Source: an uncultured Gammaproteobacteria bacterium
GTDB taxonomy: Bacteria > Patescibacteriota > Microgenomatia > JALYQM01
Direction: 5' to 3'
DNA: 64,000 nt
Assembly: GCA_964535655.1 (NCBI GenBank)
Contig: CAZHTP010000001.1
Location: 186,862 to 250,861 of the forward strand
The notes below the pieces were generated by a model. It was not told the DNA's origin, did not search any database, and was given only the letters and a program-made list of their open reading frames with translations. Below are positions 9,621 through 63,427 of the stretch, piece after piece. The position numbers and the translations under genes are program-made. The number at the start of each line of letters is the position of its first letter. Within the stretch, counting starts at the first letter, position 1.

Positions 9621-10451
9621 ATGGATACTCGACCGATTGGTGTTTTTGATTCTGGATTTGGTGGATTAACCGTCCTATCAGAGTTGGCTTCTCAGTTCCC
9701 CAATGAGAATTTTATCTATCTTGGTGATACTTTGCGTGTACCGTATGGGAATAAGTCTGAGAGCGAGGTTATTCAGTATTCATTGCAACTATCGCGTTGG
9801 CTTGTAAAGCAAAACGTAAAAGCAATTGTAGTCGCTTGTAATACTTCTTCATGTTTAGCGTTACCTTCGCTACGGACAGAATTTAATGCCTGTTTTTGGG
9901 GAATGATTGATGCTGGTACGGAAACTGTGATGCGGTATCAAGATTTACTTGGAGAAGATGTTAATCGTCTCGGTATTCTTGGGACGAAAAATACGATTGG
10001 AGCTCGTGCACATGAGAATGCATTACGCAGTGCAGGTTTTCTTGGTGAAATCTATCCTGTTGCTTGCCCTTTATTTGTTCCTATACTTGAAGAGGGAGTT
10101 ATGGATCGAAATATCTGGTATTCAGTCATAAATTACTATCTTTCGACTATTCGTGACGCCAATATCGGTGCTCTTTTACTTGCCTGTACCCATTATCCAA
10201 TTCTTACCGAGAATCTTCAGGAATATTTTGAAGGAAGGGTTCAATTACTCGATCCGAATTATCTCCTCGCTCTTGAGTTGCGTGCTTATATGACCGAGCG
10301 TTCTGAGTTAAACAATGAATCCTCACTTGGTAAAATTGAATTATGTATTACTGGTTCAGTTGATTCCTTTCAATCGTTTTATCATCGCTTTTTTGAATTT
10401 AAAGCTGAAAATGTTCGAGTTGTTGATTTATCTGAGTTAAGTAGTTTATAA
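9621..10451 (+). CDS. murI: Glutamate racemase MurI
   Basis: VFDSGFGGLTV, ACNTSS and ACTHYP motifs. Confidence 0.9.
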   Translation: MDTRPIGVFDSGFGGLTVLSELASQFPNENFIYLGDTLRVPYGNKSESEVIQYSLQLSRWLVKQNVKAIVVACNTSSCLALPSLRTEFNACFWGMIDAGTETVMRYQDLLGEDVNRLGILGTKNTIGARAHENALRSAGFLGEIYPVACPLFVPILEEGVMDRNIWYSVINYYLSTIRDANIGALLLACTHYPILTENLQEYFEGRVQLLDPNYLLALELRAYMTERSELNNESSLGKIELCITGSVDSFQSFYHRFFEFKAENVRVVDLSELSSL

Positions 10452-10462
10452 GTAACTAAACT

Positions 10463-11788
10463 ATGCTACATGTTAAAAACAAAAGAATAACAGTAATGGG
10501 TTTGGGTTTTCATCAAGGTGGTGAAGGTGTTGCTCGTTATTTAGCAGAACAAGGTGCTCTGGTCACTGTTACCGATGTTAATCCTGCAGAAAAGATGTAT
10601 GGAGCGGTGGAGCGGCTGCAGGATCTTCCTATACTATTTGTTTTAGGACGTCATGATGAGAAAGATTTTATTGATTCGGATATGATTGTGCGTAATCCTG
10701 GTGTTCCCCATACCTCTCCCTTTTTACAAATTGCTCGAGATCACCATGTTCCCGTTGAAATGGAATCCAGTTTATTTTTTAAGTTATCTCCCTCTCGAAA
10801 CATTGTTGCTGTTACCGGGACTAAGGGAAAATCTACTACTTCGCATCTGGCAGCATTTGTAACAGAGTTTTGCGGTAGAAAAACTCATTTGATGGGAAAT
10901 CTCGTTAAAAGTATGCTTGGAGAGCTTAATTCAATTTCGCCAGACTCAGTTGTAGTGCTTGAGCTTTCCAGCTATCAATGTGAAGGATTTTCTCCTTATA
11001 TTGAAGAAATGAGAAAAAATAGTTTGGGTCCGCAGTATAGTATCATTACTAATCTGTATCCGGATCATCTGAATCGATACCATTCGATGGAGGAATATGC
11101 AGCGGCTAAAAAGCAGTTACTATTGACTCAAAGTCGTAATCAAACTGCTATTTTAAATTCGGAGAATGATTGGGGAACCTTTTTTAGAAAAGACGTGTTG
11201 CCGTATGTAGAATGGTACGATTCGCATACTATACCGGAAGATTGGAAATTACGCTTGCTTGGTCGCCATAATAGACTAAACGCGGGGGCAGTGTTACGAA
11301 TGGCAGAAAGAATGGCTTTAGATGATCTTAAAGTGAAGGAAGCGATCTGTTCATTCCCTGGTGTTGAACATAGACTAGAATACGTGCGCACAATTGAGAG
11401 GGTCGATTTTTACAATGATACTACCGCAACTAACCCGAGTGCAGCTATTGAGGGAATTAAAACTATTCAGGGCTTAGGTAAGCGGATTGTGCTTTTGGCT
11501 GGTGGAAATGATAAAGGAATGGATTTTACTGGTTTTGTCGATTTAATTAATAATGCACATATACGAACTGTTTTATTACAGGGTAGTGCTAATGAAAAAC
11601 TGCGAGGAATACAAAATGACTTAGTAGTCGGTTCGTATACTGATTATGAAGAAGCAATTAGAGTCGCTTTTTCGGAAAGTGATGGGGAAGGTATTGTGTT
11701 GTTATCACCTGGTGCTACTAGTTTTAATATGTTTAAAGACGAGTTTGATCGTGGAAAGCAGTTTAAAGAGATAGTACACAATTTATGA
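10463..11788 (+). CDS. murD: UDP-N-acetylmuramoylalanine--D-glutamate ligase (MurD)
   Basis: N-terminal Rossmann region (ITVMGLG..GALVTVTD), P-loop VTGTKGKSTT, C-terminal SPGATSFNMFKDEFDRG. Confidence 0.85.
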   Translation: MLHVKNKRITVMGLGFHQGGEGVARYLAEQGALVTVTDVNPAEKMYGAVERLQDLPILFVLGRHDEKDFIDSDMIVRNPGVPHTSPFLQIARDHHVPVEMESSLFFKLSPSRNIVAVTGTKGKSTTSHLAAFVTEFCGRKTHLMGNLVKSMLGELNSISPDSVVVLELSSYQCEGFSPYIEEMRKNSLGPQYSIITNLYPDHLNRYHSMEEYAAAKKQLLLTQSRNQTAILNSENDWGTFFRKDVLPYVEWYDSHTIPEDWKLRLLGRHNRLNAGAVLRMAERMALDDLKVKEAICSFPGVEHRLEYVRTIERVDFYNDTTATNPSAAIEGIKTIQGLGKRIVLLAGGNDKGMDFTGFVDLINNAHIRTVLLQGSANEKLRGIQNDLVVGSYTDYEEAIRVAFSESDGEGIVLLSPGATSFNMFKDEFDRGKQFKEIVHNL

Positions 11789-41663: not shown

Positions 41664-44228
41664 TTACATCTCTATTGATTGGCCTTCAGTTAGTTTTCCT
41701 TCGAGAATTAGTGTGGCGATTTTTGACTCAAGCTGGTCTTGGATTTCTCGTTGTAATGGTCTTGCGCCTAGCTCAACATTGTAGCCATTTTTAATGAGTG
41801 CCTCAATGGTTTGTGGTGCGAAGGTAATGGTAATCTTTTTGGTGTCGTAGAGTTGCTGTGCTATCTTACCAAGTTGTATTTGTACTACTTTCTCGATGCT
41901 TTGGCGAGTGAGTGGTTTAAATAAAATTATTTCATCGAAGCGGTTAAGAAATTCGGTGCGGAAGTAGGGTGATAAGATGTGGTATATCTCTTTTTGAATT
42001 TGTTCGTACTGATCGGGTGCTGTTATTGTTTGAAATCTTTTCGTAATCTCATGGGTACCGGCATTGCTGGTAGCTATAATAATTGATTCGTTGAATTCGA
42101 CGGTGGAACCATATGCGTCGGTTAATCGTGCATCGTCAAGTACTTGCAAAAATAAATCGAGGACCTGTGGATGAGCTTTCTCGAGCTCATCAAGAAGCAG
42201 TAAACTATATGGTTGTTTGCGAATGATCTCAGTTAGAGGAGCGAGACTAGTGCTCCCCTCAGAGTTGCCGATAATCCTCGCGACGCTATCCTGATTCTGA
42301 TATTCACTCATATCCAAACGAATCATTTTTTTCTCACTACCGAAATATATTTTTGCAAGCGTTTTTGCCATCTCAGTTTTTCCTACACCAGTAGGCCCAA
42401 CAAAAAGAAAGGAGCCGATAGGTTTATTAGTATTGCGAAGGCCAGATCTGTTGCGACGGAGGTTTTCAGAGATCGCATGTACCGCGTCAGTCTGATCTAC
42501 TATATATTTTCTAAACTCATCTTCCATATGGAGCAGAGTTTGCGCCTCATTTTTTTCAATATCACCGACAGGTATTGTTGTTTGTGCTGTAACGATTTTA
42601 TCAACAAGTTGCTCCAGGATTGGAACTCTTTTACCATATCGTGTTATCCATAGATTTTGAGAGTGATCATTGTAGGCAACAATCGCGATATCATCAATAA
42701 GCGTTAGGGCTTTCTCAGGGAAAAAACCTTGGTGAATATAATTTTTAGCATACGTTACGATTAGATCGAGTATAGGGTAGGGGAAAAAGAGTGCATATTT
42801 TTCTTCAAGTTGTAGTGATGCGGTATGAATGATTGATGCCGTTTCGTTTTGATCTGTTTCTGGGACTTTTATATGAGTGAATTGCCCTAAGAACATGGGA
42901 CTATTCTGTTCGAGTGTTTTATATTCTTTTGGTGTTATTGCTCCAATGATAGTTAATTTCCCGTTAGTTATGGGTTTTTGTAATAATGAAAAAAGATTTA
43001 TGCCTTCTTTTGTTTTAGTTTCGATAGCTGCACTGAAATCATTTAAATAGAGTATGATATTGGTGCTTCGTTCAATTTCATCGATAATCAGTTCTACGCG
43101 CTCTTCAAATGCTCCTTTTTCTGTTGTTCCTGCAAACAATCTACCAATATCGAGATCCATTATTCTTTTACTCCATAACGGACCATGGGTTGCCCCAGTA
43201 TTAATTGCATGAGTGATTTCGCGAACAAGTGTATCTTTCCCAACACCAATTTCACCAATTAAAAGCACATTGGCATTTTGAGGTTTTTGTAGCGCTTTTT
43301 CAATAGCTTTAATAATTTCGCTGCGAATAACTCGTTGCGGTTCATTGGCTACTGCTGAATTTAAATCATATCCGTATTGGTTAAGAATAGGTGTAACTGT
43401 TCCTTGCCAGGTGCGATTGGTTCCTCCACCTACAAGAAGCTGGTAATCGGAATCCCATAAACGGGGAGGATACAAGAGTGTGAATTCGTATTCTTCCCAG
43501 GAAATGAAGAGGTGAAATAGATGAAGGTCAAGTTTATTCTTTCGCAAAATTACTTCAATTTCCGCTCCATATAAATGCATTATTGCAGCAAATACGTGTA
43601 CAGTTCTGATTATTCGTACATTTTGCTCACGTACCAGGGTATATATTTCCACTAGTAAATTCTTTCCGTTTGTCTGATGCGAAGCTAAGACCGGCCAAAT
43701 CTCGTTCATTGGGAGCAAAGATCTTTGAATAAAATGTTTAACATCAGGAGAGTCTTTTAATACTGATAGAAAATTTGGATTACCAAGATTTTTAATGAGC
43801 GTGCGAGCTTCTTTGTTGCAATAGGGTAAGATATCATAATTAGTTGCTTTAATAGGGTGAAGTTGGTAGGCTTTTTTGCGGGCAATAGCAATAAAATACA
43901 TTAATCCTATGAATGGTGTAATTAAAAACAGGGGGTACCTAAATGCAACAGCTAATGAACTTATCCAAATTAAAGGAAGCGTTAAAAGTATAATTGAACT
44001 TATAGTGAAAACGAGTGCGCCAATTATTATTACAGAAGTTCGTGTAACTAGTGAGATACATCTTCCTACAAAGGTACGATCACCATAAATTGGTGTAAAG
44101 AAATAACGTGCATTGGTTGTAATGCCAATTAAATCTTCAATTTTTGCTAAAGCATTATTAATGAAATGAAATTGAGCAATTAAAGCGCGATAAAAATACC
44201 AGGAAAAAAACTCTGTTATTGTATTCAT
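41664..44228 (-). CDS. Membrane-anchored Clp-like double AAA+ ATPase with a degenerate first nucleotide-binding domain
   Basis: 854 aa. Residues roughly 60-125 form 2-3 hydrophobic helices where a Clp_N domain would normally sit. D1 has Walker A GEIGVGKD (Thr replaced by Asp) and Walker B LYLNDF (DE replaced by ND). D2 is canonical (GPTGVGKT, LLLLDELEKAH, sensor ATSNAG, GARPLQR). No IGF/LGF ClpP-docking loop is seen. Confidence 0.75.
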   Translation of the reverse strand: MNTITEFFSWYFYRALIAQFHFINNALAKIEDLIGITTNARYFFTPIYGDRTFVGRCISLVTRTSVIIIGALVFTISSIILLTLPLIWISSLAVAFRYPLFLITPFIGLMYFIAIARKKAYQLHPIKATNYDILPYCNKEARTLIKNLGNPNFLSVLKDSPDVKHFIQRSLLPMNEIWPVLASHQTNGKNLLVEIYTLVREQNVRIIRTVHVFAAIMHLYGAEIEVILRKNKLDLHLFHLFISWEEYEFTLLYPPRLWDSDYQLLVGGGTNRTWQGTVTPILNQYGYDLNSAVANEPQRVIRSEIIKAIEKALQKPQNANVLLIGEIGVGKDTLVREITHAINTGATHGPLWSKRIMDLDIGRLFAGTTEKGAFEERVELIIDEIERSTNIILYLNDFSAAIETKTKEGINLFSLLQKPITNGKLTIIGAITPKEYKTLEQNSPMFLGQFTHIKVPETDQNETASIIHTASLQLEEKYALFFPYPILDLIVTYAKNYIHQGFFPEKALTLIDDIAIVAYNDHSQNLWITRYGKRVPILEQLVDKIVTAQTTIPVGDIEKNEAQTLLHMEDEFRKYIVDQTDAVHAISENLRRNRSGLRNTNKPIGSFLFVGPTGVGKTEMAKTLAKIYFGSEKKMIRLDMSEYQNQDSVARIIGNSEGSTSLAPLTEIIRKQPYSLLLLDELEKAHPQVLDLFLQVLDDARLTDAYGSTVEFNESIIIATSNAGTHEITKRFQTITAPDQYEQIQKEIYHILSPYFRTEFLNRFDEIILFKPLTRQSIEKVVQIQLGKIAQQLYDTKKITITFAPQTIEALIKNGYNVELGARPLQREIQDQLESKIATLILEGKLTEGQSIEM

Positions 44229-44317: not shown

Positions 44318-44391
44318 GGACTCTTAGCTCAGTTGGTTAGAGCGTCACATTGACATTGTGAAGGTCAGAGGTTCGAGTCCTCTAGGGTCCA
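44318..44391 (+). tRNA. tRNA-Val (anticodon GAC)
   Basis: Hand-folded cloverleaf: acceptor GGACTCT/AGGGTCC, D-loop AGTTGGTTA, anticodon loop TTGACAT, T-loop TTCGAGT. Confidence 0.8.
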
Positions 44392-44410
44392 CATATAGAG
44401 TAAAAGCAGA

Positions 44411-44438
44411 TTGATGTTTAAAACAAACGTAGTATACT
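44411..44438 (+). promoter_or_regulatory. Promoter TTGATG, 16 nt, TATACT driving the thrS leader
   Basis: Hexamers at 44411-44416 and 44433-44438. Confidence 0.45.
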
Positions 44439-44444
44439 CATTCC

Positions 44445-44602
44445 TACGAAAGCGCTTGTACTTGGATTACCAACCCGAGGAGCTGGAAACGAGTGATTCA
44501 CGTAATGAATTAAGAGTGTCCCTTAGGGGGAATCGAAGTGGAACCGCGGTAGAAAAGCCGTCTTCGAGCATTATTAGATTAGTGCTTGAGGACGGTTTTT
44601 TT
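44445..44602 (+). promoter_or_regulatory. T-box riboswitch leader of thrS (Thr specifier ACC, then A)
   Basis: T-box core AATCGAAGTGGAACCGCGG (44531-44549) matches the AAnnnGGGUGGnACCGCG consensus, with UGGA as in the B. subtilis thrS leader. Candidate specifier ACC-A at 44469-44472. Terminator hairpin GCCGTCTTCGAGCA...TGCTTGAGGACGG plus T7 (44558-44602), then SD AAGGAGG. Confidence 0.7.
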
Positions 44603-44620: not shown

Positions 44621-46381
44621 ATGAAAACGGAGGAATATTTACCCTTGCTTCGCCATAGTGCGGCTCATTTGCTTGCAGCAGCAGTGATGGAACTCTATCC
44701 GGAGGCTAAAAGAACTATTGGTCCGGCTATCGAGAATGGTTTTTACTATGATTTTGATTTTGGTGATGTGAAAGTATCCGATGAGGATCTCGCTAAAATT
44801 GAAGCAAAAATGCATGAAATTGTAACCTCGTGGAATGGATTTGAAAAAGAAGAGGTATCCGTTGAGGAAGCAAAGAAGCGATTTGCAGATAATCCCTATA
44901 AACTTGAACTCATTGAAGAGTTTGCGCAGGAAGGTCAACAGTTAACTATATATAAGAGTGGTGCTTTTGAGGATCTCTGCCGAGGTGGACACTCGGCCAA
45001 TCCTCAGAAAGATCTGGTTGCCTTTAGATTGCTTTCTTTGGCCGGAGCATATTGGCGGGGGAATGAAAAGAATAAAATGTTGACTCGCATTTATGGTACT
45101 GCCTTTCCTACACAAAAAGAGCTTGATGCATATATTACGCAACAGGAAGAAGCTAAGAAGCGTGATCATAAAAAATTAGGTAAGGAACTAGATTTATTTA
45201 TTTTTTCCGACCTGGTCGGTAAAGGATTGCCGTTATGGACGCCCAAGGGTTCAACCGTACGACGCGAATTGGAACGATTTATTGTTGATGAAGAGCTTGA
45301 TCGCGGCTATTTGCATGTATATACGCCTGATATTGCTCAAATCAAATTATATGAGACTTCGGGACACTATCCATATTATAAAGATTCAATGTATGCGCCT
45401 ATTGTTATTGATGATGAACAATTCATGCTTCGTCCGATGACATGTCCTCATCATTTCGAAATTTATCGATCTCGCCCAAGAAGCTATAAAGAACTTCCTA
45501 TGCGTATTGCTGAGTTAGCTAAATTGTATCGTTATGAACAATCCGGAGAGTTATCGGGACTGCAAAGAGTACGTAGTTTCTGCCTTGCTGATGCACATAT
45601 TATTACGCAGCCTGAGAAGGCAGAGGATGAAATTAATCAGGCTTTAGATCTGATTGAATATGCAGCAGGCATCTTTGGATTAAAAGCAAACGAAGATTAT
45701 TGGTATCGTTTATCTTTAGGCGATCGTTCCGATGATACTAAATACTTTAAAAGCGATGCAGAGTGGGATAATGCCGAAGATATTTTGCGCAAAGTTTTAG
45801 GATCACGTTCAGTTCGCAATGTCGAAGCCCCCGGAGAGGCTGCTTTTTATGGTCCAAAAATTGACGTTCAAATGAAAAATGTTAATGGTAAGGAAGATAC
45901 CGCTTTCACTGTACAATATGACTTTGTTATGCCGAAGCGATTTCAGCTTAAATACATCGACGAGCATGGACAGGAGCTTGAGCCGGTAGTTGTTCATCGT
46001 TCTTCAATTGGCGCAATCGAGCGTGTAATAGCGTTCCTTATTGAAAAATATGGTGGTGCATTTCCAGCTTGGCTTGCGCCTGTTCAAGCGGTAGTTATTC
46101 CAATCGCCGATCGTCATGCTGAATATGCCCAAGAATTGGCAGCTGAACTGAAAAAGGCAAAAGTTCGGGTAGATGTAGATTCCCGTTCAGAGTCGATGCA
46201 ATCTAAAATACGAGATGCTCAATTGCAAAAAGTTCCTTATATGCTCGTCGTAGGGGATAAAGAGATGGAAGCGAAAGGTGTGGCAGTGCGTAAACGTAAT
46301 GGAAAAAATGGAAGTCTTCAGCCATTCTCTGAATTTAAAGCTGAATTGCTCAGAGAGATCGCTAATAAAGAAAATAAGTAA
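44621..46381 (+). CDS. thrS: Threonine--tRNA ligase (lacks the N-terminal TGS domain; begins at the editing domain)
   Basis: RHSAAHLLAAAV..GFYYDF editing-domain start, class II catalytic motifs, C-terminal anticodon-binding domain. Confidence 0.9.
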   Translation: MKTEEYLPLLRHSAAHLLAAAVMELYPEAKRTIGPAIENGFYYDFDFGDVKVSDEDLAKIEAKMHEIVTSWNGFEKEEVSVEEAKKRFADNPYKLELIEEFAQEGQQLTIYKSGAFEDLCRGGHSANPQKDLVAFRLLSLAGAYWRGNEKNKMLTRIYGTAFPTQKELDAYITQQEEAKKRDHKKLGKELDLFIFSDLVGKGLPLWTPKGSTVRRELERFIVDEELDRGYLHVYTPDIAQIKLYETSGHYPYYKDSMYAPIVIDDEQFMLRPMTCPHHFEIYRSRPRSYKELPMRIAELAKLYRYEQSGELSGLQRVRSFCLADAHIITQPEKAEDEINQALDLIEYAAGIFGLKANEDYWYRLSLGDRSDDTKYFKSDAEWDNAEDILRKVLGSRSVRNVEAPGEAAFYGPKIDVQMKNVNGKEDTAFTVQYDFVMPKRFQLKYIDEHGQELEPVVVHRSSIGAIERVIAFLIEKYGGAFPAWLAPVQAVVIPIADRHAEYAQELAAELKKAKVRVDVDSRSESMQSKIRDAQLQKVPYMLVVGDKEMEAKGVAVRKRNGKNGSLQPFSEFKAELLREIANKENK

Positions 46382-46425: not shown

Positions 46426-47898
46426 ATGAAAGATGAACAATCTAAAAGTCTAGGTGACAGTGTATATCATGATCTCGCAGAGCCACTTTGGAAGAATAGT
46501 TTTGCGATCGGATTTCGGAGAATGGAGCAAATACTTGCTGATGCTCAGATTAATACTGACCAGGTATTGCAGCAGCAACGAGCGCTTTTTGTTACAGCGT
46601 TCAACAGTAATCATTCTCAGGAGGGGTTTTGCGGTAGAGCGCAGGTTGTTTTCCGAAATGTTAGTGAGAGACTAACGCAGCTTGATAGGCACGATCTGGT
46701 TGAGGAGCTTGTAGCTGTTGCCAAGAGAGCCTCGGAAAGATCTAATCTTTTGTTGCATGATTTGGCTGAAAGTGGAGGAACTTTCCATGCTACTGAACAA
46801 TCATTTATAACTGACGGGACCATTATGATAGCTGGAGAAGCGATGGAAGCATTTGCTTCAACTCCTGACTACTTTTCGGCTATGGCAAAACTCTTTGGTT
46901 GTACAGAAGAAGTTGCACCTATTTTGAAAGATTCATTTTTTAAGGGGGCACATTTAGATGAAGATGATATTCAAAATATTGTTAATGCACAGCAGGCTGG
47001 GGATGATACAGTTGATATTCTCGTAGGTTTTTTACTTAGACAGCAGAGAAAATATCGATTCCCTACAACTCAGGATTATGAGTTTGTACCTGGAAAATCT
47101 GACGAATATAATCAGCAACGAAAGATAAAAGCAATTCGTGATGCTGCATATTGTGTTGGCTCAGTGATACGGGTTGTGAGTATCCTGTGCCAAGACGAAA
47201 TCTCGGCAATCTCAGATATCTCCGCTTGTGAGGACCCTATAGCTTTGTTCTTGAAATGTACTAGCAAAGAATATACTGCTGAGCAAGTAGATGTAATTAA
47301 AAGGATTGCTCTTGCCCATTGTACTCATGGTTTAAATTCCGGAGAGTTGACGGCTCGGTTATCTGGTTCTGTACGTACAACATTTCCACGCGGTATCATG
47401 GCGAGTTTACTTGTGCGCAGTGGTATTGTGCATGCTGGTGCGTTGAGTGAATGTATGATGCAAACGTCAGACTACTTGCAATCAGAGCTATCGGCGGAGG
47501 AATTTGTTAGCCTACTATTTTCCTCTCACGGAAAGTTATATGGATTTGGCCATCGGATACATAAGATCGATGCTTCGGATTCATCGGAGGTGCTTGGACG
47601 GGATCCTCGTGTACATTTTTACATCTCCTGTGCTAGAGAGGCATTCCCTGATAAAGCAGATGTTATTGATCGGCTTGTTGAATATGCAAAGGCCATACGT
47701 AAGAATAAGCCTACGCTTGGTGCTAATACCGACTTTGGGGCAAGCGTCTTATTTAATTGCCTTGATCTTTCGCCTCAAGTGGCAAGCGGGTTTTTTACTG
47801 CTTTTCGAATCCCTGGGATTTGCGCGAATATTGTGAATGAGTTACAGATTAAGTCTAATTCTAGAAAACCACCATTCCCTCCAGTGTTACCATATTAA
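46426..47898 (+). CDS. Citrate synthase-fold family protein, divergent, with an N-terminal extension of about 100 aa
   Basis: GFGHRIHK...DPRV (citrate synthase His box, with about 9 inserted residues) and a C-terminal block ANTDFGASVLFNCLDLS..FTAFRIPGICANIVNE that lines up with PNVDFYSGIILKAMGIP..FAMARTVGWIAHWSE of GltA. The start is 7-10 nt after TATAGTATAAT (leaderless). Confidence 0.5.
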   Translation: MKDEQSKSLGDSVYHDLAEPLWKNSFAIGFRRMEQILADAQINTDQVLQQQRALFVTAFNSNHSQEGFCGRAQVVFRNVSERLTQLDRHDLVEELVAVAKRASERSNLLLHDLAESGGTFHATEQSFITDGTIMIAGEAMEAFASTPDYFSAMAKLFGCTEEVAPILKDSFFKGAHLDEDDIQNIVNAQQAGDDTVDILVGFLLRQQRKYRFPTTQDYEFVPGKSDEYNQQRKIKAIRDAAYCVGSVIRVVSILCQDEISAISDISACEDPIALFLKCTSKEYTAEQVDVIKRIALAHCTHGLNSGELTARLSGSVRTTFPRGIMASLLVRSGIVHAGALSECMMQTSDYLQSELSAEEFVSLLFSSHGKLYGFGHRIHKIDASDSSEVLGRDPRVHFYISCAREAFPDKADVIDRLVEYAKAIRKNKPTLGANTDFGASVLFNCLDLSPQVASGFFTAFRIPGICANIVNELQIKSNSRKPPFPPVLPY

Positions 47899-48465
47899 TT
47901 ACAATAAATTTAATAAGCAGTTTTTGTCATATACGGTCGAAGATATTCCCAACTCCGAAGCTTTTTTAACATACTGTTCATTATCATCAATGTAGAGCAA
48001 TTCGTGCACAGAGTATTTGTTAAGTAATATTTTATACATTTCCTCTTCAGGCTTCATAACTCCCGTGTAACCCGAAGTAATGTAGTCGCTAAAAATCTCG
48101 TTAAGCCTTGCTTTGTCAATTCGATAGTCCATCCATTCTTTAGGACAATTGTTACAGGATATAAATCGATATTTTTTAGATAATTTTTGGAGGAGAGGGA
48201 GAGTGCTTTTGTTAATTTTTACTTTTTTTCGATATTCCTCAGCTAAGTCAATTTTAATTGGGGTCGCTATTGATTTTTCAACTTTAGCCCAATACGTTTC
48301 CTCAGAAATTTTTCCGGTGTAAAATTCCACTTTGCCGATTTCTAAAGCAGCTCTAAATTTATCAGGAGAGATTTCTAAGGTTTTACTTACTTCGACTATT
48401 CCTTCGGTTCGCCATGTAGTTCTAAAAACTATACCACCTATGTCTAAGGCAATCATTTTGATCAT
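47899..48465 (-). CDS. HAD-superfamily (subfamily IA-like) hydrolase
   Basis: Motif I IALDIGGIVF (DxG variant), motif III GVMKPEEEMY, motif IV LYIDDNEQ. Start overlaps the upstream gene's stop (ATGA). Confidence 0.45.
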   Translation of the reverse strand: MIKMIALDIGGIVFRTTWRTEGIVEVSKTLEISPDKFRAALEIGKVEFYTGKISEETYWAKVEKSIATPIKIDLAEEYRKKVKINKSTLPLLQKLSKKYRFISCNNCPKEWMDYRIDKARLNEIFSDYITSGYTGVMKPEEEMYKILLNKYSVHELLYIDDNEQYVKKASELGISSTVYDKNCLLNLL

Positions 48466-49166
48466 ACTGTTTGATTAGCATAGCGCAATAGTGCTGCGGC
48501 TATCAATATATCATCGGCATCATTAATGTTTATTGATCGTCTTTTAGGCATAACAAAACCTCGCGAATCTTTTCCAAATAGGCTTCCGTCTAAAATTACA
48601 TCCGCTCGTGTAACATAGACAGCGCCATTTCTTCTGTACACTGTGGGAATTGCCTGGCGTGGCAGAGGGGAATCTTCTTCACCAGGCATAAGAGGGATAA
48701 CGCGCCTATCTTCCGAAAGATATTTTAAGCGCATAGGGTGGCCGGTTTCGTCTGCTACCATACTTACTACAGAATCAGCCTCAGTTGCATCCATAAGCTC
48801 TAGAGCGCTATTAATATCAAAAGCAGTTCGAAGTGGGCTGGTAGCTCTCATTGTTACAACCAAGTCATAGTGTTCACCTTGATTTCTCAGCGAGGTGACA
48901 ACCTGCCTTATCACGGGAAATGTGGGTTGACCGTCGTAGGATAATTCCGGTGGGTGTCGGTTAGTACGGGCACCATATTGTTGTGCGACTTCTTCAATTT
49001 GATCATTGTCGGTAGTGACCATGACTGTACTCAGCCTTCGGCATTGTTGCGCGGCTTCGATGGTATATGCGAGCATAGGCCTACCTTCTAAGAGTATAAT
49101 GTTCTTACCCTCGACTCCTTTTGATCCGCCTCGGGTTGGAATGAGACCTAATATGCGTTGTTCCAT
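48462..49166 (-). CDS. Acylneuraminate/nonulosonate cytidylyltransferase family (CMP-NeuAc synthetase-like)
   Basis: ILGLIPTRGGSKGVEGKNI N-terminal motif of the CTP_transf_3 family. The ORF track extends to 49202, but an extended -10 TGGTATACT (forward 49175-49183) lies 8 nt upstream of the ATG at 49166, so I take 49166 as the leaderless start. Confidence 0.65.
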   Translation of the reverse strand: MEQRILGLIPTRGGSKGVEGKNIILLEGRPMLAYTIEAAQQCRRLSTVMVTTDNDQIEEVAQQYGARTNRHPPELSYDGQPTFPVIRQVVTSLRNQGEHYDLVVTMRATSPLRTAFDINSALELMDATEADSVVSMVADETGHPMRLKYLSEDRRVIPLMPGEEDSPLPRQAIPTVYRRNGAVYVTRADVILDGSLFGKDSRGFVMPKRRSININDADDILIAAALLRYANQTV

Positions 49167-49260
49167 TTGGGCAGAGTATACCACTGCTTTCTCCCATTGC
49201 AAAGGTTTTTTGTGCGTGATACAATTTTTTGTATAGATTTAATCGGATTTTACGTGTTCG

Positions 49261-49818
49261 GTGCTCTGTTTTGAGTTTAAAATAGAGGGAAAGGCCACAA
49301 TAGCTAAGAAATTTTACCGCGTTAACCAGTTCATTCGAGCTGATCAAGTTCGTGTTCTGGACGCTACAGGGAAACAACTCGGTGTATTTACCCTTCCTGA
49401 GGCTCTAAAACTAGCCCAAGAGCAAAAGTTAGACTTAGTTGAAGTAGCAGGTCAAGCAGTCCCTCCCGTCTGTAAGATCATTGATTTTAAGAAATTTAAG
49501 TATCTTGAGAGTAAAAAAGAGGCTGATAATAAAAAAGCCGCTAAGCAGGTTGAAACAAAAGAGATACGGCTTCGGCCTTTTACCTCCGATAATGACTTGG
49601 ATGTGCGACTGAGGAAAATGAAGGAATTTTTGGAGGATGGTAATCGGGTAAAGGTTGTGATACAATTCCGAGGTCGTGAAATGGCGCGGCCGGAATTCGG
49701 TCATCAGTTGGTAAAGAAAATAACTACCTTTCTCGTTGCAGAGGAATTAGGAAAAGAAGATAGACCAGCTCGATTTGAAGGTACAAAATTAGTTGTTGCG
49801 TATAGTCCGGCTAAATAA
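49261..49818 (+). CDS. infC: Translation initiation factor IF-3 (true start probably a non-ATG codon near 49300)
   Basis: RVNQFIRADQVRVLD..PPVCKIIDFKKFKY. There is no in-frame ATG before the conserved N-terminus. Candidate ATA at about 49300 after GAGGGAAAGG. Confidence 0.85.
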   Translation: MLCFEFKIEGKATIAKKFYRVNQFIRADQVRVLDATGKQLGVFTLPEALKLAQEQKLDLVEVAGQAVPPVCKIIDFKKFKYLESKKEADNKKAAKQVETKEIRLRPFTSDNDLDVRLRKMKEFLEDGNRVKVVIQFRGREMARPEFGHQLVKKITTFLVAEELGKEDRPARFEGTKLVVAYSPAK

Positions 49819-49829
49819 AGGATAATTTT

Positions 49830-50027
49830 ATGCCAAAAATGAAAACAAAGAAATCTCTATCAAAGAGAATCAAAGTTACCGGTACTGGTAAATTAATGCA
49901 CTACTCCAAGGGCAATAATCATATTAGAACCCCAAAGTCTGCATCACGATTGCGACGTATGGCTCATGCTAAACCAATTACAGGTAAGATGGAGAAGAAC
50001 TTTAAAAAGTTACTTCCTGGTATCTAG
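49830..50027 (+). CDS. rpmI: 50S ribosomal protein L35
   Basis: MPKMKTKKSLSKRIKVTGTGK. Confidence 0.9.
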   Translation: MPKMKTKKSLSKRIKVTGTGKLMHYSKGNNHIRTPKSASRLRRMAHAKPITGKMEKNFKKLLPGI

Positions 50028-50038
50028 GAGTTTTTATA

Positions 50039-50382
50039 TGTCCAGAGTAAAAAGAGGTGTTACATCAAGAGCCCGTCATAACCGCTTACTCAAAAGAGTA
50101 GAGGGCTATCGAATGACTAATAATCGCCTTGTGCAGCGTGCGCGAGAAGCAGATTTGCATGCAGGTCAGTATGCATACCATGGTCGTAAATTACGTAAGA
50201 GAGATATGCGTTCACTATGGATTACTCGTATTAGTGGAGCGTTACGGTTGGAAGGTCTAAAGTACAGCACCTTTATGGCAGCTTTAAAGAAAAAAGAAAT
50301 AAACCTTGATCGAAAAATGCTTGCTACTATGGTTCTTGAAGACCCAAAGAGCTTTACTCAATTAATGGGAATGGTTAAGTAG
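50039..50382 (+). CDS. rplT: 50S ribosomal protein L20
   Basis: MSRVKRGVTSRARHNRLLK. The ORF-track start at 49966 overlaps the rpmI 3' end. Confidence 0.9.
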
Positions 50383-62629: not shown

Positions 62630-63427
62630 TTATGGTGTAGCGGTTGGTTTCACCGTAGCTTTTGCTGAACTACTTTGGTTAGCAGCTTCAGTTGGGACAG
62701 GGGTTGGTGATGTTTCTGGTGAAGCCTTAGACTCACTGTTTCCTTCTATTTGGTACGAATTATATGTTTGTAGCAAATCATATGTTTTTCGGTCTTCTGC
62801 GGTTAAGGTGGGAATTTCTTCTGTTTCATCTTTAGGGGTAGGTGGTAGTTGAAGATAAAAAGCTGACATGTTTGAGCTCACAGTTACACCGCCATCTTCA
62901 GACTGGGTACCACCTGTATTTAAGTTTACCGATTCCATATTAATTAATCGTTTTGCTTTATATACCTTACCCATGAAAGTCTTAATGGCTTCGTAGTTGC
63001 CTCGGTATGCGAGTGTAAAAGAAATGGATGGACCTGTTTTAGCATTAGCTGCTGTTATTGACGTGTCGTTCACTAATTTTCCTGGAGTGAGCTGGATTCC
63101 CTGAATCTGAACATCACTTTCCTGTGCAATTTTTTGAAGCTGGATAATAAGCGCTGGAACCTCTTTTTGGTTGGGAAGAGCGATCGTTAGAGCCGAGAGT
63201 TGGGCTACTAAATCGGTTTTGTTACTTTCGAGTTGAGTCAGATCTGCAAGCTTTTTGTCTAACTTTACTTTGCGTTCTTCTTCTGCCGCTTTACGTGTTT
63301 GTAGTTCCTGGATTTCTCCAATCTTTGGCTGAATAAAGAGAAGACCAATTCCTACTACTACAATGATTGCTATCACAGGAAGGACGTAATATACACTCAT
63401 TTTCATTTTACTATTCGCGTTTTTCAT
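62630..63427 (-). CDS. pilO: Type IV pilus assembly protein PilO-like
   Basis: N-terminal TM helix, coiled-coil, then a periplasmic domain; S/T/P-rich C-terminus. Overlaps pilN by 4 nt. Confidence 0.55.
   Translation of the reverse strand: MKNANSKMKMSVYYVLPVIAIIVVVGIGLLFIQPKIGEIQELQTRKAAEEERKVKLDKKLADLTQLESNKTDLVAQLSALTIALPNQKEVPALIIQLQKIAQESDVQIQGIQLTPGKLVNDTSITAANAKTGPSISFTLAYRGNYEAIKTFMGKVYKAKRLINMESVNLNTGGTQSEDGGVTVSSNMSAFYLQLPPTPKDETEEIPTLTAEDRKTYDLLQTYNSYQIEGNSESKASPETSPTPVPTEAANQSSSAKATVKPTATP

Follow-up and report, generated by a model that had tools for sequence, protein, structure and literature searches.

A conserved three-gene module with a citrate-synthase-like protein and an atypical cytidylyltransferase, located between thrS and infC in a Patescibacteriota genome

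The DNA analysed here (the window) is a stretch of 64,000 nucleotides from contig CAZHTP010000001.1 of GenBank assembly GCA_964535655.1 (positions 186,862 to 250,861, forward strand), which is deposited as an uncultured Gammaproteobacteria bacterium and placed by GTDB in the Patescibacteriota (Microgenomatia, JALYQM01). Three of its genes, lying between thrS and infC, encode a citrate-synthase-like protein (CSL), a HAD-superfamily hydrolase (HAD) and an atypical cytidylyltransferase (CMPT). They constitute a self-contained, conserved and mobile module, common to bacteria of the candidate phyla radiation (CPR) and a DPANN archaeon. We are very confident that the module is real and that it was inserted at this position, and the three genes probably work together. 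That this inserted module serves one short pathway, in which CSL, HAD and CMPT would all act, has in our judgement about an even chance of being correct.

RESULTS AND DISCUSSION

Arrangement of the three genes and its recurrence

The interval between thrS and infC is 2.9 kb long and is filled by three open reading frames (ORFs), which are present as an earlier note on this DNA had described; the domain assignments made there were also right at the superfamily level for all three proteins, as judged by Pfam and NCBIfam. The gene for CSL (490 residues; 46426–47898, forward strand) starts 44 nt past the stop codon of thrS, and no terminator-like site was seen between them. The HAD gene (188 residues; 47899–48465, reverse strand) is convergent with it, with a spacer of 0 nt. 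The gene for CMPT, a PF02348 protein of the NeuA/LegF/KdsB type (240 residues; 48462–49184, reverse strand), overlaps the start of the HAD gene by 4 nt, which suggests that translation of the two is coupled. The longest ORF of CMPT begins with a TTG at 49202, and the ATG at 49184 gives the protein of 240 residues, which was matched by an independent gene call on a Logan contig. The start is most likely this ATG; the gene had been recognised previously at 48462–49166, but the start at 49166 is not retained. A divergent intergenic region of 76 nt (49185–49260) separates CMPT from infC and presumably carries the promoters for both genes. Promoter-like hexamers occur at 49175–49225 on both strands, but at chance frequency there. 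The promoter and terminator scans gave matches at chance level and were not used as evidence.

The same layout, with CSL on one strand and HAD and CMPT on the other, was found in a Paceibacterota metagenome-assembled genome (MAG; loci L002, L036 and L037), a Kerfeldbacteria MAG (L008), two Logan contigs (L035 and L043), an NCBI contig (L045) and a MAG labelled Micrarchaeota (L003). In the last of these, the neighbouring genes encode aIF5A and ribosomal protein S24e; therefore, the locus is considered to be truly archaeal (DPANN). Throughout the recurring cassettes, the HAD gene abuts or overlaps that of CSL, and the CMPT gene overlaps the start of the HAD gene. The genes around the cassette differ at every locus, and elsewhere they are never thrS or infC. 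The layout is thus shared by at least seven independent loci from two domains of life. In addition, one protein (P0021, 735 residues) is a fusion of CMPT and CSL, with the CMPT half at the N-terminus; a gene for a TauE anion transporter adjoins it. The conserved CMPT partner and this fusion do not agree with the earlier view of CSL as a separate oddity of the tricarboxylic acid (TCA) cycle type. No description of a citrate-synthase-like protein paired with a PF02348 enzyme was found in the literature searched, where the papers retrieved dealt with other subjects such as Borg glycosylation and fosfomycin. It should also be mentioned that two tandem FtsZ genes lie just upstream of the DPANN cassette (L003, 7469–9572).

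Fold and active site of CSL

CSL matched the Pfam family Citrate_synt (PF00285) with 79.6 bits, against a gathering score of 27, over residues 267–474 only. Its best NCBIfam score was 61.5 bits, against cut-offs of 193–594 for the models of citrate synthase, methylcitrate synthase and citryl-CoA lyase. The citryl-CoA lyase models among these match the C-terminal half of CSL with an E-value of about 1e-10, under the cut-off. The family is rare: a profile search of 1.84 billion entries gave 22 representatives at E ≤ 1e-30. The score then falls from 176 to 105 bits, and ordinary citrate synthases start below this gap.

An AlphaFold (AF2) model built from 28 family members had a pLDDT of 89.5 and a pTM of 0.86. 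The top 50 Foldseek matches of this model were all citrate or methylcitrate synthases, with about 380 aligned columns, E-values of about 1e-11 and TM-scores of 0.61–0.75 normalised to the target. When the CSL profile was compared with citrate synthases in the PDB, the match began at about residue 168 of CSL, which corresponds to residue 50 of the enzyme. What CSL has in addition is, in the model, a stretch of about 115 helical residues at its N-terminus. The observation in the earlier note of about 100 unmatched N-terminal residues is thus confirmed by both structure and profile comparison. According to the model, CSL has the two-domain, all-alpha fold of citrate synthase with an apparently intact active site.

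The active-site motifs of CSL are those around His301 (HGLNSGE), His336 (HAGA), His376 (GFGHRIHK), Arg395 (DPR) and Asp436 (NTDF), together with Arg461. His301, His336, His376 and Arg395 are invariant, and Asp436 and Arg461 nearly invariant, in the 28 family members aligned to the PDB citrate synthases. These six residues correspond to His238, His274, His320, Arg329, Asp375 and Arg401 of the pig enzyme, of which His274, His320 and Asp375 are catalytic and His238, Arg329 and Arg401 bind oxaloacetate. The retention of these motifs makes it plausible that CSL carries out acyl-CoA Claisen chemistry on an oxaloacetate-like 2-oxo-acid.

Active site of CMPT

CMPT matched PF02348 (CTP_transf_3) with 70.5 bits, against a gathering score of 22.6. 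The best NCBIfam model was PseF, at 119.3 bits against a cut-off of 205.7, and the models for 3-deoxy-D-manno-octulosonic acid (Kdo) gave at most 48 bits against cut-offs of 155–281. The best matches in the PDB were synthetases of cytidine monophosphate (CMP)-N-acetylneuraminic acid (Neu5Ac), 6ifd and 1eyr. The clade of CMPT consists of the top 22 among 1627 homologues (at least 50% identity and at least 236 bits); the next homologue, of the LegF/NeuA-like type, scored 193 bits. Several of the 22 members are on contigs of the same size as those bearing CSL. The signature of this clade is Arg76-His77, Ser82, Arg113, Ala114, Asp145, Thr147, Arg184 and Asn221-Asp222.

Mutagenesis of the CMP-Neu5Ac synthetase from Neisseria meningitidis showed that the catalytic Mg2+ depends strictly on both Asp209 and Asp211 and that Gln104 matters for sugar binding and catalysis; Arg165 is assigned to the carboxylate in the same work (PMC2901514). 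CMPT keeps Arg18 and Lys27, which bind cytidine triphosphate (CTP) and correspond to Arg12 and Lys21 of the meningococcal enzyme, as well as the carboxylate-binding Arg176 (Arg165). Arg113 of CMPT occupies the position of Gln104, and Asn219 and Asn221 occupy those of Asp209 and Asp211, with Asp222 one residue later. These three replacements are kept in 91–100% of the cassette clade. A column-by-column comparison showed that Arg76, His77 and Arg184 are extra positive residues specific to this clade.

CMPT thus fails the active-site test at Gln104, Asp209 and Asp211, and for this reason it is not regarded as a canonical CMP-nonulosonate synthetase. The extra positive charges fit a substrate more anionic than a nonulosonate. 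From these residues, CMPT still resembles a nucleotidyltransferase, with a substrate that bears a carboxylate and is probably more anionic.

The HAD hydrolase

HAD matched the Pfam family Hydrolase with 28.7 bits, against a cut-off of 26.4. Its motif I is LDIGGI, in which the nucleophile Asp8 is kept and the Asp+2 position is an invariant Gly in the alignment of orthologues. Motif II has Asn in place of Ser/Thr, and Lys138 and Asp160-Asp161 are invariant. The best match in the PDB was 3cnh, an uncharacterised HAD protein with the sequence DIGGV (E-value of 2e-12), and the YihX glucose-1-phosphatase matched weakly. The DxG form of motif I is presumably common to the YihX-type phosphatases. A weak similarity to pyrimidine nucleotidases was also observed with NCBIfam. 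In six other cassette loci, the corresponding gene encodes an orthologue with 38–44% identity.

Insertion between thrS and infC

The upstream flank of the cassette is thrS (44621–46381, forward strand), the gene of threonyl-tRNA synthetase, with the Pfam domains tRNA-synt_2b, HGTP_anticodon and tRNA_SAD. The downstream flank is the infC-rpmI-rplT block (49261–50382, forward strand): infC (49261–49818) with IF3_N and IF3_C domains, then the ORFs of L35 (rpmI, 49830–50027) and L20 (rplT, ending at 50382), followed by pheS and pheT. For comparison, 80 metagenomic loci with thrS relatives of 45–66% identity were searched for infC, rplT, pheS and the three cassette proteins; 63 of them, in which the sequence past thrS extends for 700 nt or more, were informative. 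No cassette gene was found in any of the 80 loci. Among the 63, infC lies within 250 nt past thrS in 28 and at 750–1229 nt in three, and a different gene is the downstream neighbour in 32. The gap to infC is 58 nt in the closest informative relative (L046; thrS identity of 64%), and infC lies 80 nt downstream in L047 (66%). The gene order of the relatives is thrS-infC-rplT-pheS.

The closest homologues of CSL have other, unrelated neighbours: a methyltransferase gene for P0002 (53% identity) and greA for P0003 (47%). Because no relative has the cassette, infC is adjacent in 28 of the informative loci and the cassettes of other genomes are found elsewhere, the arrangement is explained by a lineage-specific insertion into an ancestral thrS-infC-rpmI-rplT-pheST order. 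The proposal of the earlier note, that an accessory insertion splits a conserved thrS-infC operon, is borne out by this synteny check.

The GC contents of the CSL, HAD and CMPT genes are 0.422, 0.339 and 0.458; the mean over the 59 genes of the window, these three among them, is 0.394 ± 0.028. At third codon positions (GC3), the values are 0.326, 0.333 and 0.361 against 0.313 ± 0.035, all within 1.4 standard deviations, and the codon-usage distances of the three genes do not depart from those seen in genes of comparable length. The somewhat higher local GC content remarked on in the earlier note is therefore not supported, GC3 and codon usage both being ordinary. Composition was rejected as a sign of transfer, with GC, GC3 and codon-usage distance all unremarkable.

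Significant direct or inverted repeats flanking the cassette were not found, nor is there an integrase or transposase gene among the ORFs between thrS and infC. The cassette does not qualify as a mobile genomic island; it is the variable location, by itself, that argues for mobility. No relative was found in IMG/VR, and a viral origin was rejected. The search for a plasmid-borne relative of CSL also gave no match.

As a separate observation, the gap between thrS and infC is 0.75–1.2 kb longer in L072 (7725–8954), L099 and L121, and that of L072 contains an ORF of about 250 residues. Small insertions may thus occur repeatedly at the thrS-infC junction.

Other partners of citrate-synthase-family genes

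To the 120 best homologues of CMPT, the N-terminal half of the P0021 fusion was added, and the resulting 121 sequences were aligned. The His77/Ser82/Arg113/Asn221 signature was found in 35 of them. The signature extends to a sister group of the cassette clade. P0125, a protein of this group, has a different citrate-synthase-family gene directly 5' on three contigs (L129, L130 and L131), on the same strand and with an overlap of 8 nt (for example, L129:1–1438), so that the two are regarded as translationally coupled. This gene matched PF00285 with 77 bits, and its product is 23% identical to CSL.

It belongs to a family of short citrate-synthase-like proteins of about 250 residues, which are comparable in size to citryl-CoA lyase and number more than 150 (P0311–P0430 listed) in the Paceibacterota, Andersenbacteria, Planctomycetia and Dictyobacter. 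Its plasmid matches were only generic citryl-CoA lyases with about 30% identity. Five further pairs of a short citrate-synthase-like protein and a CMPT are suggested by contigs of identical size. Two divergent lineages and one fusion therefore indicate that the citrate synthase family associates with this type of cytidylyltransferase.

CSL has different partners in other lineages. In the Burkholderiales (L004–L007, L039:10001–13325, L041 and L042), a LAL-type ATP-grasp ligase is located directly 3' of CSL. It is followed by a DSP/PTP-type phosphatase in L007, L039 and L041, which have readable flanks, and by none in L042. These loci are often inside defence or toxin-antitoxin islands: the trio of L039 is beside a DISARM-like DUF1156/SNF2 pair and genes for BrxR, RES-Xre, ParE and SocA. 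In Parashewanella tropica (CP037951; L034:10001–14200), the genes downstream of CSL encode an acyl-CoA-ligase-like enzyme and an MFS transporter. AbiE toxin-antitoxin and Phage_AlpA genes adjoin this locus and point to a genomic island. In all cases, CSL is partnered by an activating enzyme that uses a nucleotide, and a phosphatase is a repeated companion, namely HAD in CPR and DPANN and the DSP/PTP-type enzyme in the Burkholderiales. The toxin-antitoxin, BREX and DISARM-like neighbours in the Burkholderiales and Parashewanella had prompted a defence-system reading; PADLOC gave no match for the three cassette proteins or for the partner proteins of these two groups, and the reading was rejected.

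Two further observations concern relatives of CSL. A distant full-length relative (P0175, 523 residues) is encoded together with RING-finger, Ras/Arf GTPase and VWA genes on a compact contig (L126:124–5200), which may have a eukaryotic or giant-virus origin. In L007, from a long-read Burkholderiales MAG, CSL is split over two frames (10441–10500), through either an assembly error or a pseudogene.

Proposed pathway

By analogy with characterised enzymes of these families, the following pathway can be drawn. CSL would condense an acyl-CoA, probably acetyl-CoA, with a 2-oxo-acid by the Claisen mechanism of citrate synthase, giving a citrate-like tertiary α-hydroxy polycarboxylic acid. The 2-oxo-acid may bear a phosphate group; HAD would then strip the phosphate from the intermediate, or would drive the pathway forward. 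CMPT would use CTP to place CMP on the hydroxyl group beside a carboxylate, the chemical position activated by KdsB in Kdo and by NeuA in sialic acids. The product would be a CMP-activated non-sugar acid, to be transferred to a surface acceptor or metabolised further. As the most economical reading, this three-step mechanism itself is put forward tentatively, and its substrates, the order of its steps and the fate of its product all follow from the analogy. It is similarly possible, although far from assured, that the citrate synthase family and the "R113-type" NeuA-like cytidylyltransferases form an unrecognised route to CMP-activated citrate-like donors, which would have spread horizontally among CPR, DPANN and other phyla and would add strongly acidic groups to surface polymers or build a new class of metabolite.

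Several points weigh against this pathway. CPR-type organisms often have no obvious source of oxaloacetate or acetyl-CoA. HAD may not be a simple phosphomonoesterase, because the general acid at Asp+2 is absent. The canonical Mg-binding pair of Asp residues is lost in CMPT as aligned, so that this protein might be catalytically different or might merely bind a ligand. A conserved neighbouring transferase for a CMP-activated product was not found at the cassette loci. Finally, the partners of CSL in other lineages include carboxylate-activating enzymes (ATP-grasp and acyl-CoA-ligase-like), and these fit a soluble citrate-derived metabolite or an acyl-CoA supplier no less well than a CMP donor.

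The last point leads to an alternative in which the product is a soluble citrate-derived molecule, such as a chelator, metallophore or antimetabolite. CSL would make the tricarboxylate core, and the partner enzyme would activate it for condensation or export. The variation of the partner by lineage, always with use of a nucleotide, is consistent with this, as seen in the ATP-grasp ligase of the Burkholderiales and in the acyl-CoA-ligase-like enzyme and MFS transporter of Parashewanella; so are the TauE transporter beside the fusion protein and the occurrence of loci in variable islands. However, the products generally known for PF02348 enzymes are phosphodiesters made with hydroxyl groups rather than acyl-nucleotides, and neither a transporter nor a condensing enzyme is conserved in the CPR and DPANN cassettes. 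This alternative seems rather unlikely.

Catabolism or salvage is improbable to a greater degree. CSL would here act as a lyase, like citryl-CoA lyase, on an acyl-CoA derived from a scavenged host compound, and the CMPT-like protein and HAD would process a nucleotide-linked or phosphorylated precursor. The sub-threshold matches of the citryl-CoA lyase models to the C-terminal half of CSL, the lyase size of the citrate-synthase-like partners in the sister clade of CMPT and the weak similarity of HAD to pyrimidine nucleotidases all point in this direction. The combination of MFS transporter, acyl-CoA ligase and CSL in Parashewanella also resembles uptake, activation and cleavage. On the other hand, the long CSL has the whole synthase fold, beyond the lyase core. 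Cytidylyltransferases are, as general knowledge has it, biosynthetic in every characterised case, and the CPR cassette contains no CoA ligase or transferase.

Slightly less probable again is the activation of a nonulosonate or Kdo-like sugar for glycosylation of the surface or of pilin, with CSL as an unrelated neighbour. The earlier note had read the cytidylyltransferase and phosphatase in this way, as a pair for sialic, pseudaminic or legionaminic acid or Kdo. PF02348 membership, the top ranks of PseF in NCBIfam and of CMP-Neu5Ac synthetases in the PDB, and the presence of a PilO gene in the window (62630–63427) agree with it, and HAD phosphatases are generally known to accompany the pathways of Kdo, deaminoneuraminic acid (KDN) and Neu5Ac. 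However, the PseF score (119 bits) is far under its cut-off, and the pocket residues equivalent to Gln104, Asp209 and Asp211 are Arg, Asn and Asn. Gene tables and Pfam scans of the window and of seven cassette loci revealed no NeuB/PseI, PseB/C, aminotransferase or TCA genes, and no dehydratase or acetyltransferase of these pathways; in the same loci, no ulosonate synthase (NeuB, PseI, LegI or KdsA) or sugar-modifying gene was found beside CMPT. Since genes for nonulosonate synthesis were not found there, the sialic or pseudaminic reading is unsupported, and so is the activation pair of the earlier note. Moreover, CSL is the invariant neighbour of the CMPT clade and is once fused to it, and a second citrate-synthase-like family pairs with the sister clade.

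A chance gathering of three unrelated accessory genes at a permissive intergenic site, which would suit the other small inserts at the thrS-infC junction (L072, L099 and L121) and the failure to find flanking repeats or an integrase, is highly improbable and already effectively refuted by conserved synteny and fusion, that is, by an order and orientation of the three genes that do not change across at least seven independent loci of two domains with unrelated neighbours, and by one fused protein.

If the proposed condensation and CMP activation are true, CMP-activated acid donors would extend past the 8- and 9-carbon ulosonic sugars, and the chemistry of citrate synthase would be put to a use other than central metabolism, in organisms without the TCA cycle. 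The module is one of few accessory metabolic units common to CPR bacteria and DPANN archaea, and it may bear on how ultra-small symbionts build or disguise their surfaces. The automatic labels "citrate synthase" and "CMP-legionaminic or neuraminic acid synthase" are both probably wrong for this clade.

The thrS leader and the rest of the window

On the 5' side of thrS, the region 44402–44600 (forward strand) contains a weak match to the T-box family (RF00230), with 33.6 bits (E-value of 6e-6) against a gathering score of 93. A strong hairpin of 20 pairs with a T-run (44553–44600) follows it directly upstream of thrS, and a tRNA-Val gene (44318–44392) lies upstream of the leader region. A T-box-type leader with a terminator hairpin is probable. 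The expression of thrS may be under T-box attenuation, with CSL co-transcribed.

All other genes of the window are housekeeping genes. They include the dcw cluster, parB, dnaB, lgt, lspA, rpsB-tsf-frr, recG, nusB, rnc, trmD and pilO, and genes for a Peptidase_M50 (rseP-like) protein, a Clp-type ATPase and a PBP1-type penicillin-binding protein. The aminoacyl-tRNA synthetase genes are thrS, pheS, pheT, one of the class I Trp/Tyr type (tRNA-synt_1b) and one of class II (tRNA-synt_2b). In the Clp/ClpB-type double-AAA ATPase (41664–44228, reverse strand), an N-terminal region of about 270 residues, strongly hydrophobic in character, replaces the usual Clp_N domain; this protein may be anchored in the membrane.

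Comparison with known systems

The pathways of Kdo (KdsA-KdsC-KdsB), KDN (KDN-9-phosphate synthase, phosphatase and CMP-KDN synthetase) and mammalian Neu5Ac (NANS-NANP-CMAS) follow a logic like that proposed for the cassette: a synthase forming a C–C bond, a phosphatase of the HAD superfamily and a cytidylyltransferase of PF02348. CMP is placed on the hydroxyl group of the carboxylate-bearing carbon, as is proposed for the cassette, and CMPT shares with their cytidylyltransferases the Arg and Lys that bind CTP and the Arg that binds the carboxylate. In contrast, the synthase of these pathways is of the phosphoenolpyruvate (PEP)-dependent KdsA/NeuB aldolase type, whereas that of the cassette belongs to the acyl-CoA Claisen type of the citrate synthase family. 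The cassette also differs in the Arg that replaces Gln104 and the Asn residues that replace Asp209 and Asp211 in CMPT, and in having no genes for sugar precursors. We take the HAD of the cassette to be a cap-bearing, IA-like protein with a DxG motif I, not one of the KdsC type.

CSL shares with citrate synthase, 2-methylcitrate synthase and citryl-CoA lyase (PF00285) the fold, the catalytic His/His/Asp residues and the His and Arg residues that bind oxaloacetate. Its identity with the known enzymes of this family is 14–18%, and it differs from them in the N-terminal helical extension and in an insertion of about 10 residues after GFGHRIHK. Glu307, Ser315-Val316-Arg317, Cys343 and Lys380 are invariant residues specific to the CSL family. 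Unlike these enzymes, CSL occurs in organisms and loci without a TCA context.

In the phosphonate antibiotic pathways, acetyl-CoA is condensed with a 2-oxo-acid and CMP is placed on a non-sugar intermediate (Psf2/FrbC; the cytidylyltransferase domain of Fom1; FrbH) (PMC9088020). They are a precedent for both of the proposed chemistries inside a single specialised pathway, with the two steps non-adjacent there. A phosphonate pathway was rejected for the cassette itself: no PEP mutase or other phosphonate gene was found at any cassette locus.

The nearest homologues of CMPT outside the cassettes, which are CMP-N,N'-diacetyllegionaminic acid synthase or NeuA-like proteins of environmental genomes, have the same length and fold family and 38–48% identity. 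Most of them keep Gln at position 113, which is present in 85 of the whole alignment of 121 sequences, and Asp at position 221 (86% of the 98 non-cassette sequences). Unlike these LegF/NeuA-like homologues, the cassette clade and its sister group have Arg113, Asn221 and neighbours from the citrate synthase family. The enzymes of the module thus belong to known superfamilies, and there is a realistic chance that they define a new class of CMP-activated acid.

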